Source: a virus (taxonomy: Duplodnaviria > Caudoviricetes). Taken from it: a DNA stretch of 64,000 nt. Under the pieces are notes generated by a model. The model saw only the letters and a program-made list of their open reading frames with translations. It did not search any database and was not told the origin of the DNA. The stretch covers positions 96,001 through 160,000 of the IMG/VR virus record IMGVR_UViG_3300020048_003360. One strand, written 5' to 3'. The number at the start of each line of letters is the position of its first letter. Within the stretch, counting starts at the first letter, position 1. The position numbers were made by a program, and so were the translations under genes. Positions 30,768 through 63,476 of this stretch are shown here, one piece after another.

Positions 30768-30853
30768 AATGTTACCTTTATCGTTGTTTCAGCAAATGAG
30801 GTGCTGATCATAAAATATAAAATTTATTTATGATCAGCACTATTCAGTAATAA

Positions 30854-31063
30854 CTACTCTTTAAAATACATTGATACTGCTGCTTTTCCTATAACATCTA
30901 AAAGTGTATTTGTAGTGCCAATGAGTAATGGACTCAATACGATTCTATTAGAAATTGATTTCATTCCAAATATTGCTCCTATTTCAGCTCCACTTTCCGA
31001 TAGAATGGGTTCATTATAGACATTACCAAATACAGATTTCATTTGATTACTAAAAACGCCTTT
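30854..31063 (-). CDS. Virion RNAP beta subunit (gp178-like), exon 3
   Basis: Begins KGVFSNQMKSV, completing the conserved GDK motif with exon 2; 69 aa. Confidence 0.88.
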   Translation of the reverse strand, partial: KGVFSNQMKSVFGNVYNEPILSESGAEIGAIFGMKSISNRIVLSPLLIGTTNTLLDVIGKAAVSMYFKE

Positions 31064-32700
31064 CGATATATTCAATATGGTTCGTTAATCCATACCCGCA
31101 GCATTACCTGCAGCTCTAGCTCTCACTAGATGTCCAGACTATATCTTCACCCTCACTATATAGTGATAGGGTGTCTCCTATTTCCACTCACTTGAGTGTA
31201 CTCCCAGCTACGGGATAGTCGTTGAACGTTCTCCATAGAGCAGAGGGTGGTTTACACCACTCTCCATCTTACAGGAGCTTCGCTGCTGATTGTCTCTATT
31301 TGATTCTTTTCAAACCTTCATAATCTCTTTTCAGGATTATTGTGGTGAATCAACTTAAACGAGAGTTTCCAGCAATTAAAGAGAAAACTAATTGATTATT
31401 ACTAATCAATAGGACTATTGTGAGGTATTTCTTCCTTAAATAACCAACCATGGTGAGATTTACCAGAATGAAGTTTTTCTTTTAAGGTTCTTTTATCAAT
31501 CGAGAGATAACCAACTAACTTTCTAATGCTATTAAATTTTAATACTTCAGCTGTATTTAAATTAGTCGCTATAATCTTTCTAGGTGCAGTATAGACAGTA
31601 GATTCATATTCTGCTGGCCATTTATCTTCACACTTTATACGAAAAATATAGTTTTGACAACATTTTGGTTTAGTTGATCGCAATGCATTCAGGATTCTTT
31701 CTTCAGAAATTTTTGTTTCTTTGGTTAGAATCTTAATTGTATTTCCCTCAATTATAGATCCGGTTTTAATATTGTAAGCTTGGTATGGTCCTTTTAAACG
31801 AAGAACCTCATCACGGTTTAATTTTGAGTAATACCACTCACCTGAGTCATCGGCTAACTTTATTTCATATCGATTTAGAAATAAAATTGGAATATTACTA
31901 CTGCCTATGCTTCTAGAGATTTTTTTACTCTTTGACGTTAATCCAATTTTAGATAACGCAAGACCAATTGATGGGAATGATGTTTCTTGTCCAGTATCTA
32001 TATCGCGTACTCTACAAGGAAAATTATCATTCCTAAGACCACTTCTTACAGCATGTAAGTTATTACCTCTTGAAGAAGTCCATTGAAGGTTTCTTAGAGC
32101 ATAATTTAGCTTATTTCCGTCTCTATGGTTAATAAAACAACAGTAACCAGGATTATCGTTTCTAACAAATGCCCTAGCAAGAAGAATGTGCGTACTAACG
32201 CTTCTCCACTTACTCTTATCTGGATCATAAATATTGACGTATGGATACCCATATGGACCTATAGCTTCTTTTAGTGTTCTGCCGGTTTTACGTGACATCA
32301 CTAAACCATCTTTATTTATAATAAACCCAGGAAAGCCGGGTATAAGTCTAAAATCGTCTGGATATTCTATTGGTGTTTTTATCACCATTAAATAACCACA
32401 CTTAAGACCAATGACTTTTGATCTACACTCGATAAAACTAATTTTTGAAACTTCACTGTATGACAAATCAACTTCATAGTGCGCTATTAATCCTAACCAC
32501 CTTTTATTAAGTATCTGGTTAACAGAATCAATTACTATACTTATTAAGTTAGGATCACCATAACAATTGGTTTGATTATTGATATTACAATTACCATCAA
32601 AATCAAACATATATTGTTCATTAAGAAATAATTTTTTTAGCTCCATTGTACTTACTCCATGTTAGTCATAGAATGTACAACAGAACAATACTCACAGTTA
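31064..32700 (-). mobile_element. Group I intron 2 in RNAP beta, 1637 nt, containing an HNH gene
   Basis: 5' exon ends GAT(U); intron ends ...ATATCG before AAAGGC. Core elements TTAATTGCTGGAAACTC (P), CAATCAGCAGCGAAG (Q), GTTCAACGACTAT (R), GAAGATATAGTCTGG (S). Confidence 0.9.
31402..32646 (-). CDS. Intron-encoded HNH homing endonuclease (NUMOD4-like + HNH + NUMOD1-like repeats)
   Basis: IPGFPGFIINKDG...GYPYVNI; HILLARAFV...INHRDGNKLNYALRNLQW...NNLHA; three C-terminal xDxxTG...F.SI repeats. Confidence 0.88.
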   Translation of the reverse strand: MELKKLFLNEQYMFDFDGNCNINNQTNCYGDPNLISIVIDSVNQILNKRWLGLIAHYEVDLSYSEVSKISFIECRSKVIGLKCGYLMVIKTPIEYPDDFRLIPGFPGFIINKDGLVMSRKTGRTLKEAIGPYGYPYVNIYDPDKSKWRSVSTHILLARAFVRNDNPGYCCFINHRDGNKLNYALRNLQWTSSRGNNLHAVRSGLRNDNFPCRVRDIDTGQETSFPSIGLALSKIGLTSKSKKISRSIGSSNIPILFLNRYEIKLADDSGEWYYSKLNRDEVLRLKGPYQAYNIKTGSIIEGNTIKILTKETKISEERILNALRSTKPKCCQNYIFRIKCEDKWPAEYESTVYTAPRKIIATNLNTAEVLKFNSIRKLVGYLSIDKRTLKEKLHSGKSHHGWLFKEEIPHNSPID

Positions 32701-33612
32701 ATCGCCAACTCCTGCACTAACGTCACCAGTAATGTAGAATTTAATATTGAGAGTATCGATAGCTAATGCCTCGCCATCAATACGATAACTCTCATCTACT
32801 TGACCTGTAAAGGCTTTTTTACCAATGGCTTTATTACGCTTAGCTAGTAGTTTATTTGTAGTGGTAGTTAGTTCCCTTAAAGATTGAGACATGTCTTCAA
32901 GATCACCATGATAGAAAATCTCTATCTTTTCTACCACACCAGTAGCTTTTGCTTGTGGTGTCATTGCACTGAGTATGCGTAAAGTATCTATAGATTCTTT
33001 ATCAAACAAATTAGATTCAGCTGACACAGCATCTTCAATGATGCACAAAATATCTTCTGAAGATACATCAGCACCTACTTTTACTAAGTTATGTATGCTT
33101 TGTTTAAAATCTACAATTACGTTCTTTACTTTAGTAGTTTTAGTACTCAGTAGTGCGGCTGTCTTAAGAGAAATAGATGAACAATCCTCAAACGTAGCTG
33201 AGGACTCCATCAGTGCTGTTTTAACAATAATACCTGACTTCATTACTATATTACTGGGATTCAGTAAATCTTTTTCAAAAAAGTTACTATTAAATGAAAT
33301 AATATCACCTTCTTTAAATTTCTGACCTTCTTTCATCTCAGTAATTAGTTGATGCGGTATCGTTAAACCAGCTGCTGATCCAAATCTTCTACCTAATTCA
33401 TAACCTATTTCGCTACCGTCTTCATAGATTACTATAATGCCAGTATCTGTGATTTGTTTTACCTTACCACCGCTAGTGGCTGCTACGGCAAACATATCGC
33501 CAGTACGTTGTGCTATTACCTGTTCATATCCAGTACGCACCATACCTTGTCTATATCCAGCTGCAGCTACTACATGACTATTTTGGATATTTATAAAATT
33601 TACTCTTTTTGG
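32701..33612 (-). CDS. Virion RNAP beta subunit (gp178-like), exon 2
   Basis: PKRVNFINIQ ... TFEDCSSIS ... GVGD; 304 aa. Confidence 0.88.
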
Positions 33613-33953
33613 CGGTTTCTTCAATATGGTTCGTTAATCCATACCCGTGCACTAAAGCACTGCTCTAGCTTTCACTAGATGCCGAGACTATATCTTCACC
33701 TACTATTTAAATAGTTTAGGTGTTTCCTATTTCCACCCACTTGGGTGTACTGGCTGATAAAGCCATAGTCGTTGAACGTTTCTCATACTCTTTGAGGTTA
33801 GAGACTTCGCTGCTGATTGCCCATTGTACTATCTATTTCTTTTCAAACTATCGCATCTATCTTTTCAGATTACGCTGTAGTGAAATAGCTTTAGGGAGTT
33901 CCAGCAATTAAAGAAAATTCAATTAACCATTACTGATTAATCGGACCATAATA
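33613..33953 (-). ncRNA. Group I intron 1 in RNAP beta, 341 nt, no ORF
   Basis: P1 UGAU|UAUUA pairs with UAAUGGUUA, giving U-G at the splice site. P/Q/R/S elements present. Terminal G at 33613 precedes CCAAAAAGA. The junction restores DDPKR (equivalent to RpoB HDDANR). Confidence 0.9.
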
Positions 33954-36900
33954 ATCATCCATATCACTACCTGGTGCATTTAGTGCTGACGTACTCAATA
34001 GAGCAGTGGCACCACTTTCACCTACTGTATATCCCTTAGTCATACCTCTCAAATTAGTAAACTGTGGATCAGCACTGGTAAATGTATTTATAGCTACATC
34101 ACTACTATCTACAGTGGCCTCAGAAATAGTACCCATGTCATTTTTATGGTAGAGTCTAGTGCGTTTTGTCATACTGCGACTATTACGACCACCAGTACCA
34201 CTATAGGTAACAGCTTCAGTTTCTTTTAGATTCTGAATTGGATTAATATCATTTACAGTTACTACTGCCGGATCCTGACGTAGAGACATCCAAACTGCAT
34301 ACGGATTTAACTCAATTTGCTTATTACCCTTACCTGGTTTGGCATTATGCGCTCTAATTGCTTTAACCATTTCTGTATAGACTACACCAGCTACTCTTTC
34401 ATATCCTTTAATACGCATATGGCTGGGATCTAATTCATCTGGATGTTCTTCCGTTAACAGTAGTTCACAACTACGGATTAATAATCCATGGAATGTAGTG
34501 GGTTCTTTCATTTCCCGCAATAGTTCTTTAGTAATTGGATCAATAAACATCTGATACATCAGGTCTATTTCACGCAAATACTTAGTACTAGCACCATCTG
34601 TTTCTAATACATTCAAATAGACACTGGGTTTATCAAAGTCATATACACCATAGTCAATAATTGCTTTATGGTATTCATTGAATCCAGCCAGTATAATTGA
34701 TGCCTTCCTATCGTCTTTAGAAAATACTAGAGTCTCATCACTGAATACTAAAGAATATTCGTGTGATTCTAAATTCACTCTAGTGCCGGTATTCACACGT
34801 CTAGGCACCACACCCAGCAGCTTAATTAACCTACTCAAACCTAACTCATATCCTAAGATAATTCCAATCGGAATCTCTCTACCCATTACCTTAAGTTCAG
34901 CATGATCTACAGGTGCCTTCTTAGCATCTAGACCTAATAGATCTTCAATAGAGCAGAGATCTACCAAATCACCATTATTGCCAGTATATAATGCACCATC
35001 TGAATCCATTACTAAATAAATGTTAGTACCTAATGGACCAATGCCTTTTGTACTAGTAGTGGTATTTAAACCGACTATAATAGCACCATCTTTTTCATAT
35101 GCTTCAATGGCTTCTTTACCATATAGATCTAGACGTTCAGTATGGTCAAAATTAAGAACATATGTAGTTTCTTTACCAGTAATACCACTGTTAGCAGTAA
35201 AGCCCCTAAAGTTTTGAGCCAGTGAATTATACACTCTAGGTGCAGTAAATTGATTATCAAATACATTACCAGTATAGAGTTTAGTAATTGTTAGATTTGT
35301 ATTATCTAAACCCAATACAGTAATATTATTTTTTAACCATTGACAATAGTCATTTACTTTCTTATCACTCCTACTAATAAATGTTTTAGAGTAATAACTA
35401 GTAAGAGCTACGGTATCTGGAGATACCTTTCGTATAGGAAGGTCACCACGTTGCCTTCGTAACTTATACTTAACTCCATTAGACGTGTAAGTGCCGTCAC
35501 TACCAATTACCGGTAACTTATACCTCATTATAGAAGGCATACCTTCTACTGGTTTTACTTTGACAGTATAAAGTTCATAATCGCCCATTACGTCTTCTAC
35601 TACTTCTTTATCATATCCAGTTAATATAACTCCAGCATTCTGAATACTCACTACCATACCAGCAATATCTTTTTCTAATACATTAGAAATGTATTTTTTA
35701 TCAAAGTCATGTAAACTACTCTTTAGCATGCTCTTATCGATAACTGTAGGTATGTCTTTAAAACTATGTGATGATTCTATTTTTAAAGACTCTGGATTTA
35801 CATCAATAAACTTATCTAGAGTTTCCTTTCCATTTGGAGCTACAATACTACGATATGTTTTAGATAGTTCATTGAGTTTTTTATACTCACTAGCTGACAT
35901 CATCCCCATATCTGCCAGTCTATCACATACTCGTAATACACCATCTTCTAGTGTAGGCGCATCTCCTACTATTACTATATCTTCTATTTTATCTCCATCA
36001 TCATTCATGTCACCGTGGTGATTTATAGAGATAGTTTCTAACTCAGATAATTCAGCTTCTATTTCCTTATCTAACTCATCATCAGCAGTAATAGTTTCGT
36101 CTACATCTACTTCAGTTGTATAATCTATTTCCTCACTGCTATCGTCAGTAATCTCCTGACCACTACTTTGAGCAATTATTGCCTTATCTATATCCTTAGC
36201 TATAGTAGTACTATTATTTACTTCTGGTATAGTTACATCTTGTTTTATTACAGTAGTTTTAATAGTATCTATCTTAGATTTCTTAGCTAACTTAGCTGCA
36301 GCTGTTCTCACCTGGAATAGAGCCATCATAAGACGCAGGAAACGCATCTGTAGTTGCTTTGGATCAATACCCTTAGTGTTGGCATCGGGATTGAGTTCTA
36401 GCTCTTCCTTAGTGGCTACACGCCATCTATTTAGCCTACCTAAGTTTACTACAAAAAACTTACCTGACTCTTGAAAAATAATATTTACTTTATCTAATTT
36501 ATCATCTGGTACATTTGCTAATGCAGATTCTTTTCTATCCGGACCTACCCACTTCCACAACTCTAATAGACTTAGACTTTCAGGACTATTAAAGATCTTT
36601 ATGGTTTTTTGAGTAATGCCTTTACTGGCTAATCTTAAGTCAGCAATACTGGGTAAAATATTTGGTAGATTATACAAAATAAACTGATTTCTGTCAACTT
36701 GACCCGCTACTTCGGCTATTTTCTTCCATACAGCAGTTTCAGTATTCCACCATTTATAGTAAGCAGTATAATAAGACCGTAAATATCTATAAAGTCTAGG
36801 AATTACTCCATAATTAAATATAACCAGAGTATTAGCATCTTTACACGCATTAGTTAATTCTCGCATAATCCGAAATCTACGATGCTTAATGTGGTACGTA

Positions 36901-37175
36901 CGTATCATAGTGCCAGACGCTACTGACAATGGTCTGGGGTTACCTTTATTATCTCCATTTTCGATTACATGATCCATCATAATTGGACGAGTAATATTCC
37001 TAAAAATAAACTCATCAGAAGCAGGTCCTACTTCTACTGGAGATACTGTAACATAATGCAATATTGATTGTTTGGGTAATGATAATAGTTCTAAGTTTGT
37101 TAACGGAGGCGACAGCAATTGACCAGCCACCCGTATGCCGTATTTTAAATAAAACTGTTGAAAGTACATACTCAT
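33954..37175 (-). CDS. Virion RNAP beta subunit (gp178-like), exon 1
   Basis: 1074 aa; RRQRGDLPIRK, TYSGTGGR, GTISEATVDS. The spliced product totals 1447 aa. Confidence 0.9.
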
Positions 37176-37186
37176 TTTTAATTCCT

Positions 37187-38806
37187 TTATTTAGTCAAAT
37201 TATGCATGACAAAATTCGTAGTATCGGTTCTAATAGATGACTTTAGTCTTCCATCTACACCTACGTAGGCTTCACGAGACGCTAAATAATTTTTCACCTC
37301 AGCTATAGACTCATCTGAATATAGTGCTGTAGCGCTACATACATCTCCGTCATAATCAGCTACCATGCCTTTTACTTTAGATGGATGTGGTACTAAGGAG
37401 TTTAGATATGATCCGGCTATTGGAAATGAATGCGCTACGTATTGTTTATCCATAACAGACCAGCTCTCTGATAGCTCTTTACGTACTTCAGACTTTACTG
37501 TGGTCCGTACATACATCATACTACAATACGTACTACCTACACCGGCAATTGGATACCTAGTCACAATCACTGGTACGTTTTTCAATCTCACATAGGTAGA
37601 TGCATATAGTAGTTCACAAAACGTCAATGGATATACATCTGACTTATCCATACCCTCTGGTAACTCATCTATATCCTGCATTAGTTTAAAAGTCATATCT
37701 GGACCTTTATATATCAATCCCATATAGTGACCTTCTATTTCCAATGGTAAGTCTCTTAGTCTTTCTTCTTGAAAACTAGTAATGATCTTTTCAATACCTT
37801 CATCTGTCATCCACTTATCAAAATATCTGGTATTCAATACTACATTTTCAGACTTCAGTGTTTTCTTATTTACTAGCTTCACTGGCATATTCGGAGCAAT
37901 AAATACCTTCGATAAGAAACCAGTTTTAATATGGTATCTAGCTACTGGCATTATAGACTTTAATGCCTGATATAATCCCATTACCGTATTGTTTACACCC
38001 ACTGCACCATCACTACCTAAAATAGGCATACTGGTATCCATAGATGTAATTACATTTCTAGTACCATTAAACACTCTACGTGATGCCCATTTACCCAATA
38101 GTAGTTTTTTCTTTCCTTTTACCATATCTATAATCTGGTCATAGATGGCATTAAAAGTCATTTGTAAACCCAATCTACTATTATTTATCAATTCAGTATT
38201 TGATCTTAAATTAGCATCACTAATACCATTACTAATAGATAGTAGTTTTCTATATAGGGTATTTATTTCATCTGTTTCATTCCTACCATCATCTCCAATC
38301 TCCATATCCCTCAATCCAGCAGGCATCACTACTACTTTACTAGTAGTAGCTATTTTTTTATGTTTTTCTATTAATTCAATATTCTGTTCTCTTTCTACAC
38401 TATTGTTTTTCTTAAATACAATATCTTCCCAATATTGCATAAAGTAAGCAAATCCACTCTTACCACTCAATGGATTACTTCTTTCAAAGTCTTTAATTTC
38501 GTCATTCCACAATACATATTCGCTACCATTAATAATTCCACCATATAGTCTTTTTAAATCTACCAATGCATTATAGATTACTGGATGAAATATTGGTACT
38601 TTAATATCGATATAGGAGAATCTACGGTTACGTAATTCATCACCTACCTTACCAAAGATCTCTGGTGAATATAGTCCATCTGGATGAAATACATTTGTAT
38701 TACCTACAAAATCATCTAGAGTAGATATTTTTCTAATACTACGTAATTTCTCAGGAGTTAAGTTAAGTAAAGAAATATTAAATGGTATATCTAATTTAGT
38801 GGACAT
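37187..38806 (-). CDS. Virion RNAP beta-prime subunit with active site (gp180-like)
   Basis: HPDGLYSPEIFG, VMPAGLRD, RRVFNGTRNVIT, TRYP and active-site ADYDGD. Start placed at MSTKL; the upstream start at 38878 is also possible. Confidence 0.9.
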   Translation of the reverse strand: MSTKLDIPFNISLLNLTPEKLRSIRKISTLDDFVGNTNVFHPDGLYSPEIFGKVGDELRNRRFSYIDIKVPIFHPVIYNALVDLKRLYGGIINGSEYVLWNDEIKDFERSNPLSGKSGFAYFMQYWEDIVFKKNNSVEREQNIELIEKHKKIATTSKVVVMPAGLRDMEIGDDGRNETDEINTLYRKLLSISNGISDANLRSNTELINNSRLGLQMTFNAIYDQIIDMVKGKKKLLLGKWASRRVFNGTRNVITSMDTSMPILGSDGAVGVNNTVMGLYQALKSIMPVARYHIKTGFLSKVFIAPNMPVKLVNKKTLKSENVVLNTRYFDKWMTDEGIEKIITSFQEERLRDLPLEIEGHYMGLIYKGPDMTFKLMQDIDELPEGMDKSDVYPLTFCELLYASTYVRLKNVPVIVTRYPIAGVGSTYCSMMYVRTTVKSEVRKELSESWSVMDKQYVAHSFPIAGSYLNSLVPHPSKVKGMVADYDGDVCSATALYSDESIAEVKNYLASREAYVGVDGRLKSSIRTDTTNFVMHNLTK

Positions 38807-39195
38807 AGTCTCAGTCTCTGTGTAATGGGTCATAGCATTGGAGATAGATGTAAATAATCTATTTTTACTATACGGCATAATAGCCTGAAATTATGTCAGG
38901 CTATTATTATGTTTATTCTAAATAATAAAGATTAATTTTCAGTAAGATCGCTTCGCTCACTGTTTGGAACCCCAATCCCCTTAACTAGACTATTTTTTCT
39001 TTATCTTAGAGTATTAGATTAATAGATATAAATATTTAATCACAATCATCTAACGGGAGTGCAGCCTAGGCATGTGACCAGGCAAGATTCACATACGCAT
39101 ATAAAGTATAACTCAAGTATTTTTTATTTTTTAAATAAAGAAAAAAATAAAGATCCCAATACTACAGGATCTCTATTTACTTAAACCAACTAATA

Positions 39196-60840: not shown

Positions 60841-60916
60841 TGGTGGGACCGGAAGGAGTTGAACCTTACATTCTTGGCTTTATGAGAACCCTGCTTCACC
60901 GTTAAGCTACAGTCCC
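60841..60916 (-). tRNA. tRNA with CAT anticodon (Met or lysidine Ile2)
   Basis: Cloverleaf GGGACTG/CGGTCCC, GCTT/AAGC D stem, CTCATAA loop, TTCAACT T loop, encoded CCA. Confidence 0.85.
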
Positions 60917-60943
60917 AATTTACTACATTTAACTTCTCAAAAA

Positions 60944-61470
60944 TTGTGCTCCTTAAGATATTTCTATCTATACTGTCATTCTAAATCAAGAGCATTATTT
61001 AGAATCTAGACTATGTTATCACCATATATTTGGTAGCTCTTACTCACCACACAGGTGGCTTGCTCAAATACTTAGGTATTCCGTTTCTAGTCTCTACACC
61101 TTCCTGTTATTCCTTAACGACTGTACCACTTCGATCCGTGGCCTTGGTAGGAATACTACGAGTTCAGGCTGGCTCGGCGCTGGCATATTAATAACTACCT
61201 TAGAACAGTCTTACTGCCGATGATTTTTCTTCGGAAAACCATGAAACCATCATCTGCTTCAGATACTTATTAACTTAGCTTTTGCCGAATTTACGGAAAT
61301 ACTACTAGCGGGTTTCCCTTGATACGTTACGCCTTTTCGCGTTCGTCTTACTATACCTGATTCCATTAAGGACTCACAAACATTTCTGCTTGCTCTTCGG
61401 CGATTATCCTATCCAGGTTATCGAAAACTGACTACCATATCATTTTTCGCTAGTGACCTATTACGACACT
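60944..61470 (-). ncRNA. Group I ribozyme core A, host gene not identified
   Basis: P3 TTCCGT/ACGGAA; P AAATTCGGCAAAA; Q GCCGAGCCAGCC; R GGTGTAGAGACTA; S ACATAGTCTAG; P9 hairpins; 3' TAAG. The 5' boundary is uncertain. Confidence 0.75.
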
Positions 61471-61476
61471 TTATTC

Positions 61477-61743
61477 TCACACTATATTAAACCTACCATC
61501 AAACAATAGGTTTTCATTTTGTAATCTGATGTCTCCAGAGACGTTCAAATAGTAGGCATCCTTAACCACGGAGCCGTCTTCTAGATAAACATTTATCCTT
61601 AAGACATGATTCCCAAGCGTTTCCTTTATGTCCAGAAACACTCTATCCTTTACAGTAACTCTGGTAGTTACTTTAAGGTCTTCACTTTCTCCAATAGTGA
61701 AGTCATTACCAATAAAATACCTAATCATTTGCACCTCCATCAA
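61477..61743 (-). CDS. Hypothetical protein between the two ribozymes
   Basis: 88 aa, GAGGAG RBS. Confidence 0.6.
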   Translation of the reverse strand: MMEVQMIRYFIGNDFTIGESEDLKVTTRVTVKDRVFLDIKETLGNHVLRINVYLEDGSVVKDAYYLNVSGDIRLQNENLLFDGRFNIV

Positions 61744-61761
61744 TTAACTCCTCATTAAAGA

Positions 61762-62510
61762 TTGTGCACCTTAGAATGTTTCCATCCATTTAGTCATTTA
61801 TGGTCAAGTGTATTACCATAAATCTAGACTATTATGCTCCTTCATTAACTGTGGTTCATATTAGAGCTTCTGACAGCCATATGGTATTTTAGGTACATCA
61901 GAATTTAAGTACCACAACTACTAATCTACTAGACAACTAACTTAGGATTCCGTTTTTATAATCACACCTTCCTGTCGTGTCTTTGGAGGTACTTCTATCC
62001 TCAGTACTTTATGGGGTCTTAGTCCCACTACAGGCTTGGCTCAGTATCAACATATTCTTTAAAATAGGCTCTTCATTACATTCGGGCAACCCTGCTAGAA
62101 CTAACCGAATGAATTCTATTTACTCAAACCCGTGGCAGGATTTAACTTCGATTTGAGTACCGTCTCTTAAAGAACTTAGTTTTTACTGATTTTACGGAAA
62201 CTGATATCTTTGATTAGATCATTGTGTCATTTAGAATGGTAGGTAAAGGAATTAAGTTTTTACACTACCTTTTTAACCTATTTTATCCATAGCCACGACT
62301 ACAGTGCTAATCTAAAGTAACCAGTGCGGTACTATGCTAGGTGCATAATTGTATAACTCTGCCTAGCGCAAAGCGTGTGTCCTTTACTACTAAAGTTCAC
62401 GGGAGTAAATGAAGCTATGGACTTCATTCAGGGATTTTTCTTCTGATTATGCTCATTGCCGAAGATCCACCCGTCGCACGGTCGTATACCCATGTCCATA
62501 GCATGGGTTC
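61762..62510 (-). ncRNA. Group I ribozyme core B, host gene not identified
   Basis: P3 TTCCGT/ACGGAA; P AAAATCAGTAAAA; Q ACTGAGCCAAGCC; R GGTGTGATTATA pairing with S ATAATAGTCTAG; same 3' architecture as core A. The 5' boundary is uncertain. Confidence 0.7.
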
Positions 62511-62511
62511 C

Positions 62512-62661
62512 CTACTTGCTGAAAATCTTTCTACACGAGTAATCTATCACTCGCTTATCGTTTATCATGTAAGACAGTCCCACATAATTACATCCTGATT
62601 CGGTTTCTATCTTGGAGTAAATAACTTCTCCAGATATAAGGAAAATAATGAGTAGATACAT
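62512..62661 (-). CDS. Small protein with hydrophobic N-terminus (49 aa)
   Basis: Hand-translated MYLLIIFLISGEVIYSKIETESGCNYVG...CRKIFSK after AAGGAG. Confidence 0.5.
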   Translation of the reverse strand: MYLLIIFLISGEVIYSKIETESGCNYVGLSYMINDKRVIDYSCRKIFSK

Positions 62662-62678
62662 TTATCTCCTTACTTAAA

Positions 62679-62728
62679 TGGCCTCCCGTAGTGGACTCGA
62701 ACCACTGACCCCAATCTTAGAAGGATTG
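62679..62728 (-). pseudogene. tRNA-Arg(TCT) 3' fragment (positions 27-76 only)
   Basis: CAATC CTTCTAA GATTG GGGTC AGTGG TTCGAGT CCACT ACGGGAG G CCA; no D arm or 5' acceptor strand. Confidence 0.75.
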
Positions 62729-62734
62729 TTTAAT

Positions 62735-62816
62735 TGGCGGGACAGGTGCGACTCGAACGCACATACTCCAATTACGCGGTTAACGACGGCTTAGAAGGCC
62801 GTTGCGATACTGCCCC
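62735..62816 (-). tRNA. Non-canonical tRNA-Arg(TCT)-like RNA lacking the D arm, with a long variable region
   Basis: GGGGCAG/CTGTCCC acceptor stem, ACGGC CTTCTAA GCCGT anticodon arm, GTGCG TTCGAGT CGCAC T arm, G-CCA end. Confidence 0.7.
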
Positions 62817-62826
62817 AATTATACTC

Positions 62827-63078
62827 TTACCTAGCAGACGCCATACCCATGGTGGCTCTATGGATAGGTACTACATTGTCGCCGCTCTTCCTCGCCAACT
62901 CTCCATAGCAATCAGCTCTGAGCAACTCTTTCAGTCGCTCAATTGTGTCCTTATCGGAAGTTACGACCAAGTGCAAAGAAGCTGTATCATCGATGTTAGA
63001 GTCAATTACAGCTAACTGCACTGTTTCTTGCTTCGTTGAGTGTGTGGGCGCAAACATCCGTGTAAACCAGTTAAACAT
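62827..63078 (-). CDS. Hypothetical protein
   Basis: 83 aa, AGGA RBS. Confidence 0.6.
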   Translation of the reverse strand: MFNWFTRMFAPTHSTKQETVQLAVIDSNIDDTASLHLVVTSDKDTIERLKELLRADCYGELARKSGDNVVPIHRATMGMASAR

Positions 63079-63114
63079 TTTATTCGTCCTATTATTTAGT
63101 TGATCGATGTCTTA

Positions 63115-63381
63115 CTACTGAGTACTCTCTACAGATTCACTACTAACTTCCTTTGCTGAGATCATCCATTCAAGAAAGCTATGATACACACTCATTGCTT
63201 CATTTTCATCAACCGGCACTCTAATTCCTCTCACATAGAAGCCATCTTCAGCAATTCTAAGGACAGGTTCACCAGTTTTAGCATGGTGAAAGATTACAGA
63301 ATTAGGATATAACTCTGCAGCAGTCATAGCCACTTCTGAATGAACTTCGTTAATTGCCACTGCATCCACATTTTCTTCCAT
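63115..63381 (-). CDS. Hypothetical protein
   Basis: Start moved to MEENV after AAAGGA because the longer ORF overlaps tRNA-Thr; VLRIAEDGFYVRG motif. Confidence 0.6.
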   Translation of the reverse strand: MEENVDAVAINEVHSEVAMTAAELYPNSVIFHHAKTGEPVLRIAEDGFYVRGIRVPVDENEAMSVYHSFLEWMISAKEVSSESVESTQ

Positions 63382-63401
63382 GATCATTCCTTTAAATAAG
63401 A

Positions 63402-63476
63402 TGGTGCCCAAGGTGGAAGTCGAACACCAGATCCCCGCATTACAAGTGCGGTGCATTACCATTCTGCTACAAGGGC
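63402..63476 (-). tRNA. tRNA-Thr(TGT), degenerate T and acceptor stems
   Basis: CCGCA CTTGTAA TGCGG anticodon arm, GCA/TGC D stem, CCA end; two U-U acceptor mismatches and a broken T stem. Confidence 0.65.

Follow-up and report, generated by a model that had tools for sequence, protein, structure and literature searches.

Does a virion RNA polymerase (RNAP) beta gene that is broken into three open reading frames (ORFs) still specify a single polypeptide, and what are the two sequences that interrupt it? The question arose for a stretch of 64,000 nucleotides (the window), which runs from base 96001 to base 160000 of an IMG/VR viral contig of 208 kb (IMGVR_UViG_3300020048_003360) with an estimated completeness of 78%. 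The answer that we think very probable is that two mobile group I introns, of a family common in phiKZ-like phages, entered the virion RNAP beta gene at conserved boundaries between codons of the active centre, and that the ligated mRNA encodes one subunit of 1447 residues. The two insertion sites are written here as DD/P (intron 1) and GD/K (intron 2), the slash marking the point of insertion.

Joined reading frame of the virion RNAP beta gene

Three ORFs listed for the minus strand (33930-37175, 32698-33624 and 30854-31075) all match phrog_3148 'RNA polymerase beta subunit' and tile this family without gap or overlap, exon 1 covering its positions 3-1050 (E=0), exon 2 positions 1051-1354 (E=1.6e-122) and exon 3, which is colinear with the C-termini of relatives, positions 1355-1421 (E=1e-19). 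The match was provided by PHROGs, and a search of the three pieces against Pfam returned no family. A first-pass annotation of this DNA had proposed that junctions at 33954/33612 and 32701/31063 restore the motifs DDPKR and GDK. Joining the exons at these positions indeed gave an open frame of 1447 codons, in which the terminal stop is the single stop and the junctions read ..GSDMDD/PKRVNF.. and ..GVGD/KGVFSNQ.., and the proposed exon arithmetic of 1074+304+69 residues is correct at the protein level. Residues 1-1444 of the joined protein align with the uninterrupted gp178 of phiKZ (37% identity, E=0). After splicing in silico the frame again reads DDPKRVNFINIQN and GDKGVF, like that of intron-less relatives, two of which from IMG/VR (L010 and L011) read ..NDDPKRVNFINIQN.. 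and ..GAGDKAVF.. at the two sites.

The closest polymerase proteins are those of Burkholderia phage FLC9 and Ralstonia phage RP12, with 55-58% identity (58% to FLC9 for exon 2), and more distant matches come from phiKZ-like phages of many hosts. In tblastn comparisons, residues 1-1074 from exon 1 are colinear with phiKZ gp178 and PhiPA3 gp211. As the gene is colinear with phiKZ gp178 and adjoins a homologue of gp180, its assignment as a virion RNAP beta gene homologous to phiKZ gp178 is supported by these comparisons, and by orthology its product would be packaged into the virion and transcribe early genes (PMC11620839). With the locus as megablast query, the sole match was to Brochothrix phages, over 58 nt of intron. 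The three ORFs are best annotated as parts of one gene.

Group I ribozymes in both gaps

A comparison with group I models, proposed by the first-pass annotation, was performed with the Rfam model RF00028 (length 1-253, gathering score 50 bits). Both gaps were matched on the minus strand over the full model length, with 91.7 bits for intron 1 (33663-33966) and 76.9 bits for intron 2 (31114-31465), where the ribozyme core lies 3' of the ORF. The core elements P, Q, R and S (AAUUGCUGG, AAUCAGCAGC, GUUCAACGACUA and AAGAUAUAGUC) were found in both introns. The suggestion that the two cores are related was thus borne out, their identity amounting to 71-72% across some 277 columns that could be aligned. 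The last exon base before each intron is U, the last base of each intron is G, and neither intron interrupts a codon. These data support the presence of two genuine group I introns at active-centre motifs; given the observed exon structure and ribozyme cores, both would be expected to splice. The coordinates of all features are given in Table 1.

Table 1. Features of the interrupted polymerase gene, numbered by window position.
Feature	Position	Strand	Remarks
Upstream neighbour, phiKZ gp180 / PhiPA3 gp212 homologue (virion RNAP subunit)	37187..38878	-	phrog_2986, E=5.8e-201; uninterrupted
Exon 1, virion RNAP beta gene	33954..37175	-	1074 codons; ends GAT ATG GAT GAT (D M D D)
Intron 1	33613..33953	-	341 nt, without ORF; DD/P site; RF00028
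Terminal hairpin, intron 1	33620..33647	-	stem GGUAUGG/CCAUAUU, loop AUUAACGAA; ends 7 nt before 3' splice site
Exon 2	32701..33612	-	304 codons; PKRVNFINIQN ... GVGD
Intron 2	31064..32700	-	1637 nt; GD/K site; starts with in-frame TAA, ends in G
P1 5' strand, intron 2	32691..32707	-	exon UGGCGAU, then intron UAACUGUGAG; pairs with 31410-31424
Predicted HNH homing-endonuclease gene	31402..32646	-	414 aa, inside intron 2 P1 loop; GGAG 9 nt before ATG
P1 3' strand, intron 2	31410..31424	-	internal guide sequence CUCACA-A-UAGUC-CUA; directly 5' of P2; G31415 pairs with last exon U
Terminal hairpin, intron 2	31071..31098	-	same 28 nt as in intron 1; ends 7 nt before 3' splice site
Exon 3	30854..31063	-	69 codons plus stop; starts KGVFSNQMKSVFG

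The endonuclease gene of intron 2

The ORF of intron 2 matches phrog_59 (E=5e-29) and shares 33% identity over 129 aa with the HNH domain of PhiPA3 gp210. Its His174 aligns with the catalytic H82 of gp210, for which an H82R mutant is inactive and no longer able to nick (PMC11620839). The ORF therefore probably encodes an intact-looking HNH homing endonuclease of the I-HmuI/gp210 type, and its activity and target can be predicted by homology. Nicking of an intron-less GD/K allele would be in line with the homologous endonuclease that occupies the identical site in Bacillus phage AgentSmith, as described below.

The P1 duplex predicted for intron 2 (-16.2 kcal/mol; RNAduplex) puts a U.G wobble exactly at the junction derived from homology, and since this long-range P1 spans the ORF, the endonuclease gene lies inside the P1 loop. 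When intron 2 was scanned for guide sequences with at least five contiguous pairs, only chance-level matches inside the ORF were found. Compared with shuffled sequences, long-range P1 pairings were significant for the introns of L009, the closest IMG/VR relative (0.003), and of PhiPA3 (0.04), and not significant for that of AgentSmith (0.09).

Occupancy of the two sites in other phages

The first-pass annotation had also called for a survey of intron occupancy in relatives. For the DD/P site, a probe of 102 residues across the site was employed and counted as intact when at least 80% of it was covered in one place. It was uninterrupted in 234 of 251 phage records and broken at DD in at least 17 others, among them Serratia phages Kodama and Totoro, Shewanella phage FishSpeaker and EL-like phages. 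L009 carries a 1.4-kb intron with an ORF at DD/P. In 201phi2-1 (gp273/274) an ORF-less intron occupies the same site, and the joined product is annotated as identified by mass spectrometry. DD/P is also the site of the published PhiPA3 gp210 intron (gp211/gp210/gp209; PMC11620839). The HNH intron in an RNAP gene of PhiPA3, cited as a precedent in the first-pass annotation, is therefore real, and it resides in the same gene and at the same site as intron 1, which had gone unnoticed. In two further IMG/VR records (L012 and L013) the introns are located about 3-4 codons downstream of DD (after ..DDPKR or ..DDSKR), and therefore at least two distinct insertion points cluster at this motif.

A probe of 138 residues across GD/K was continuous in 267 of 268 records, the exception being AgentSmith. 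There, an intron with an RF00028 ribozyme of 81.8 bits is inserted at the identical nucleotide position (GAT/AAA), its guide sequence UAGUCCUAUU matches that of intron 2 in the same place, and coding sequence (CDS) 112 is homologous to the intron 2 endonuclease over the full length (34% identity, E=2e-75). In the database record of this phage (MW749006.1; L014, 111864-117989), the label 'putative HNH endonuclease' stands on CDS 111, the large exon, which encodes the RNAP beta subunit; the intron endonuclease is CDS 112, the last exon is CDS 113, and neither the group I intron nor the join is annotated.

With respect to the bacterial enzyme, the DD motif corresponds to D674/D675 of E. coli beta, the second Asp being equivalent to D675 (PMC11620839). 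In a profile of the C-terminal region, the phage GDK aligns with bacterial beta ..VGDKMAGRHGNKGV.. with weak E-values (0.09-1.5), and 12 of the 14 matches were to RNAP beta in the expected region. Since GDK falls on GDK in this alignment, GD/K is placed between D1064 and K1065 of E. coli beta. The possibility that GD/K is the homologous position of the phiKZ gp71/73 intron, as both precede K-G-V, was considered and rejected, because the profile puts GDK 8 codons before K1073. A BLASTP comparison of exon 3 with phiKZ gp73 gave no match.

Relationship between the two introns

The first-pass annotation had taken the two introns for siblings that spread within the gene, for example by reverse splicing, and had pointed to an identical block of 28 nt near their 3' ends. 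The identity of 33620..33647 and 31071..31098 is exact, and these are the only two copies of the 28-mer in the 208-kb genome. However, the block is a structural module conserved in this intron family and not a scar of duplication. All family members examined (16-22) have a hairpin with a loop of the type UA(A/G)CGAA at the same place; the stems covary (e.g., UAUCA/UGAUA, UAAGG/CCUUA, AUAG/CUAU and CAGAGG/CCUCUG) and the loop is conserved. Inspection by eye for a partner of the loop UAACGAA revealed no covarying complement. A 21-nt core of the hairpin, GGTATGGATTAACGAACCATA, which looks like a 3' module of exceptional sequence conservation in this intron family, recurs exactly in four other IMG/VR contigs (L005, L006, L007 and L008), each time in some other gene, where it closes a group I intron or an intron-like element of sub-threshold score. 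In L005 this is an intron inside the td (thymidylate synthase) gene (94.1 bits) with the complete 28-mer, and in L006, L007 and L008 the elements lie in terminase-like regions (33.7-43.4 bits). Because the exact 28-mer thus ends a td intron in an unrelated phage, the block is not evidence of a recent copy.

The two ribozymes resemble each other no more than they resemble introns in other genes of Pseudomonas phages. Intron 1 shares 70-72% identity with the gp179/gp180 intron of phiKZ and 71% with the DD intron of 201phi2-1, and intron 2 shows 76-77% identity to an intron in the DnaB-like helicase gene of PhiPA3 and to one in Pseudomonas phage 124.01. FastTree placed introns 1 and 2 in different clades. 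With IQ-TREE and 16 sequences, intron 1 grouped with the phiKZ gp180 intron and intron 2 stood beside that pair; with 22 sequences, introns 1 and 2 were paired weakly (support 67/83). An approximately unbiased (AU) test neither supported nor rejected the sister pair (p 0.31). When the 5' and 3' core parts were placed in separate trees, a recombination break between the two introns did not emerge clearly. The AgentSmith core, 52-56% identical to the two introns of the window, groups with a PhiPA3 intron of another clade (98/96). As the endonuclease and the site of intron 2 match AgentSmith and the ribozyme does not, cores and endonuclease genes have been reassorted.

Duplication of one ribozyme lineage inside the gene, with the introns as true siblings and the 28-nt block as a remnant of the copy, therefore appears unlikely to us. 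In its favour, among the 22 sequences of the set intron 1 is most similar to intron 2 (72%), the best IQ-TREE topology pairs them and the AU test does not reject this pair; also, both guide sequences present GUC to an exon ending in GAU, and the core of intron 2, unlike its AgentSmith-type endonuclease, may derive from a local relative through replacement or conversion. However, the cores differ by 28%, intron 2 is nearer to the helicase gene and 124.01 introns, the trees disagree, and the L005 td intron, with a core that shares no more than 63-65% identity with introns 1 and 2, demonstrates that an identical block needs no local copying. Both sites are, moreover, occupied in other phages, which fits endonuclease-driven homing, and since AgentSmith fills the GD/K site with a homologous endonuclease, ordinary homing is indicated. 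An old common origin of introns 1 and 2 is allowed by the data, and the sequences give no sign of a recent copy.

Splice register of intron 1 and points against the two-intron reading

Several observations weigh against excision of the two introns as proposed. The phage is uncultured and splicing is deduced from sequence; no P10 pairing exceeds 1 bp. The P1 duplex of intron 2 was not significantly better than shuffled controls (fraction 0.10), and the NUMOD4, HNH_3 and NUMOD1 matches of its ORF all stayed under the Pfam cut-offs. Finally, when the P1 hairpin of intron 1 is taken by itself, the register lying 3 nt upstream is preferred (-5.4 vs. +1.2 kcal/mol for the register after GATGAT).

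In the upstream register UGGAU pairs with GUCCG and the U.G wobble follows ATGGAT; the Rfam alignment, which sets the consensus wobble at GGAU, agrees with this free-energy evaluation. The internal guide sequence GGUCC corresponds to intron nucleotides 7-11. At the junction that restores DDPKR, where exon 1 ends in GAUGAU with the required U at -1, pairing of GAU with GUC alone fits, and a scan of intron 1 for guide sequences with at least five contiguous pairs at GATGAT/CCAAAA found none. Intron 1 might consequently splice after ATGGAT (between 33957 and 33956) to leave a single Asp (..MD-PKR..), or a mixture of forms might arise; in the extreme, this ORF-less intron with its truncated P1 might splice poorly, and reading through it would add 7 intron codons before an in-frame stop. 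Both registers are in frame, and phiKZ escape mutants with an altered second Asp are viable (PMC11620839). Nevertheless, we regard this alternative as distinctly improbable. All intron-less relatives examined keep DDPKR. In L009, PhiPA3 and 201phi2-1, the junction after GAUGAU agrees with a long P1 extension in which the exon contributes the same 3 bp (GAU with GUC), a short pairing that is also used by intron 2 and AgentSmith, and the annotation of 201phi2-1 lists the joined protein as identified by mass spectrometry. Homology thus argues for the GATGAT/CCAAAA junction, and intron 1 looks like a derivative that lacks the former ORF and the long P1 extension kept by its relatives.

That the three ORFs are not joined and encode separate polymerase subunits next to relic ribozymes is scarcely credible: although a natural division of RNAP subunits into several polypeptides is known from jumbo phages (PMC7598289) and the ORF listing contains TTG-initiated frames for pieces 2 and 3, these TTG codons lie inside the conserved intron hairpin without a Shine-Dalgarno sequence, piece 3 has 69 residues only, the same gene is uninterrupted in most relatives, and the breaks, each falling precisely between two codons of an invariant motif, adjoin intact ribozymes with a U at -1 and G as the final base.

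Proposed mechanism and significance

In the two-intron reading, the ribozymes would excise themselves after transcription, and the ligated mRNA would encode the single beta subunit. Intron 1 sits at the well-known DD/P hotspot and would have lost its endonuclease gene and long P1 extension, and the HNH enzyme of intron 2 would most likely nick intron-less GD/K alleles of co-infecting relatives and so promote homing. Filled DD/P and GD/K sites would at the same time protect the phage's own gene from matching endonucleases. Site and endonuclease homology are observed, and the route by which each intron arrived is our inference from them.

In the literature, the intron endonuclease of this exact gene has been shown to act as a weapon between co-infecting jumbo phages, PhiPA3 acting against phiKZ (PMC11620839). 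A bolder scheme, which we put forward tentatively and consider rather unlikely in its entirety, would see the two introns as shield and sword between co-infecting nucleus-forming phages: intron 1 would destroy the DD/P target of rivals' gp210-type nucleases, the HNH enzyme of intron 2 would nick the rivals' GD/K site, which is almost never protected (empty in 267/268), and a transcript lacking exon 2 in frame or an isoform shorter by one Asp might also arise. The skipped transcript would be in frame, since both introns lie between codons and have a common 3' terminal module. Exon-2 skipping or recombination may occur, and the 28-nt direct repeats, which are 2.5 kb apart, could support a deletion of exon 2, at the cost of 304 residues of an essential enzyme.

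Selfish group I introns in this very gene were already known, and the general picture of phage group I introns is unchanged. What appears to be new is the double occupancy of a gp178-type gene, the rarely used GD/K site in common with a Bacillus phage, the discordant histories of endonuclease and ribozyme, and the ambiguous 5' splice register of an ORF-less intron. With DD/P filled without a nuclease and GD/K filled with one, the locus offers a natural case for the number of hotspots in an essential polymerase gene, and the phage is well suited to asking if ORF-less introns serve as immunity. It also gives a handle on the reassortment of cores and endonucleases, in which the endonuclease tracks the site and the ribozyme core does not. 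To judge from titles in the reference list of PMC11620839, independent evolution of introns and intron ORFs is already a subject of the literature.

Neighbouring genes and other elements

The uninterrupted upstream neighbour is a homologue of phiKZ gp180. In phiKZ this gene is cut by the gp179 HNH intron at a point that corresponds to residues 508 and 509 of the window homologue (tblastn), and its second exon of about 54 residues is unannotated in AF399011 (L015, phiKZ 181353-191645). Window positions 30800-30850, directly past the exon 3 stop codon, hold an inverted repeat that is long and perfect (AGTGCTGATCATAAA ... TTTATGATCAGCAC) and is likely a terminator or processing hairpin. Three tRNA matches were obtained with Rfam at window positions 60844-63476 (minus strand).

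A third group I intron is present in the same genome about 9-10 kb before the window start (C1:85465-86814, minus strand; L002; RF00028, 89.1 bits). It splits a beta'-like RNAP gene (phrog_2987) exactly at NADFDG/DQLN, its HNH ORF of 331 aa is situated 3' of the core and not in P1, and it lacks the hairpin in its 28-nt variant.

Comparison with known systems

Two introns come closest among known systems, the mobile group I intron with gp210 in the PhiPA3 gene for virion RNAP beta (Birkholz et al., Science 2024; PMC11620839) and that of 201phi2-1. In PhiPA3 gp211/gp210/gp209 and 201phi2-1 gp273/274, the same gene is interrupted directly after the two conserved Asp codons by introns of the same ribozyme family with the same type of terminal hairpin; the PhiPA3 genome gives four RF00028 matches. 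Like that of 201phi2-1 and unlike that of PhiPA3, intron 1 is without an endonuclease gene, and its P1 is minimal. The second, endonuclease-bearing intron located 304 codons downstream is missing in PhiPA3, 201phi2-1 and phiKZ.

For intron 2, the layout of AgentSmith CDS 111/112/113 is the same, with the endonuclease gene in the 5' part and the core 3' of the gene, although AgentSmith is a very distant Bacillus phage and its DD/P site, in contrast to that of the window, is empty. The non-virion RNAP beta of phiKZ (gp71/gp72/gp73; spliced chain PDB 7OGP_C) is cut in the same conserved region, directly before a Lys-Gly-Val stretch as is the case for intron 2, by a group I intron that belongs to this family and carries an HNH gene (gp72), and gp72 shares 26% identity with the intron 2 endonuclease (E=4e-22). 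However, this is a paralogous gene and the insertion corresponds to N1072 and K1073 of E. coli beta, as compared to D1064 and K1065 in the window.

Genes with several introns are known from other phages as well. Three introns and exon skipping were reportedly described for Twort orf142 by Landthaler and Shub in 1999. In Bastillevirinae, DNA polymerase and terminase genes that hold two or three group I introns are documented, and skipping of an exon between neighbouring introns was seen experimentally for the SIOphi terminase (PMC11878797), so that an exon-skipped product of the window gene would have a precedent. The multi-intron genes of Twort and the Bastillevirinae belong to other phage groups and are other host genes.

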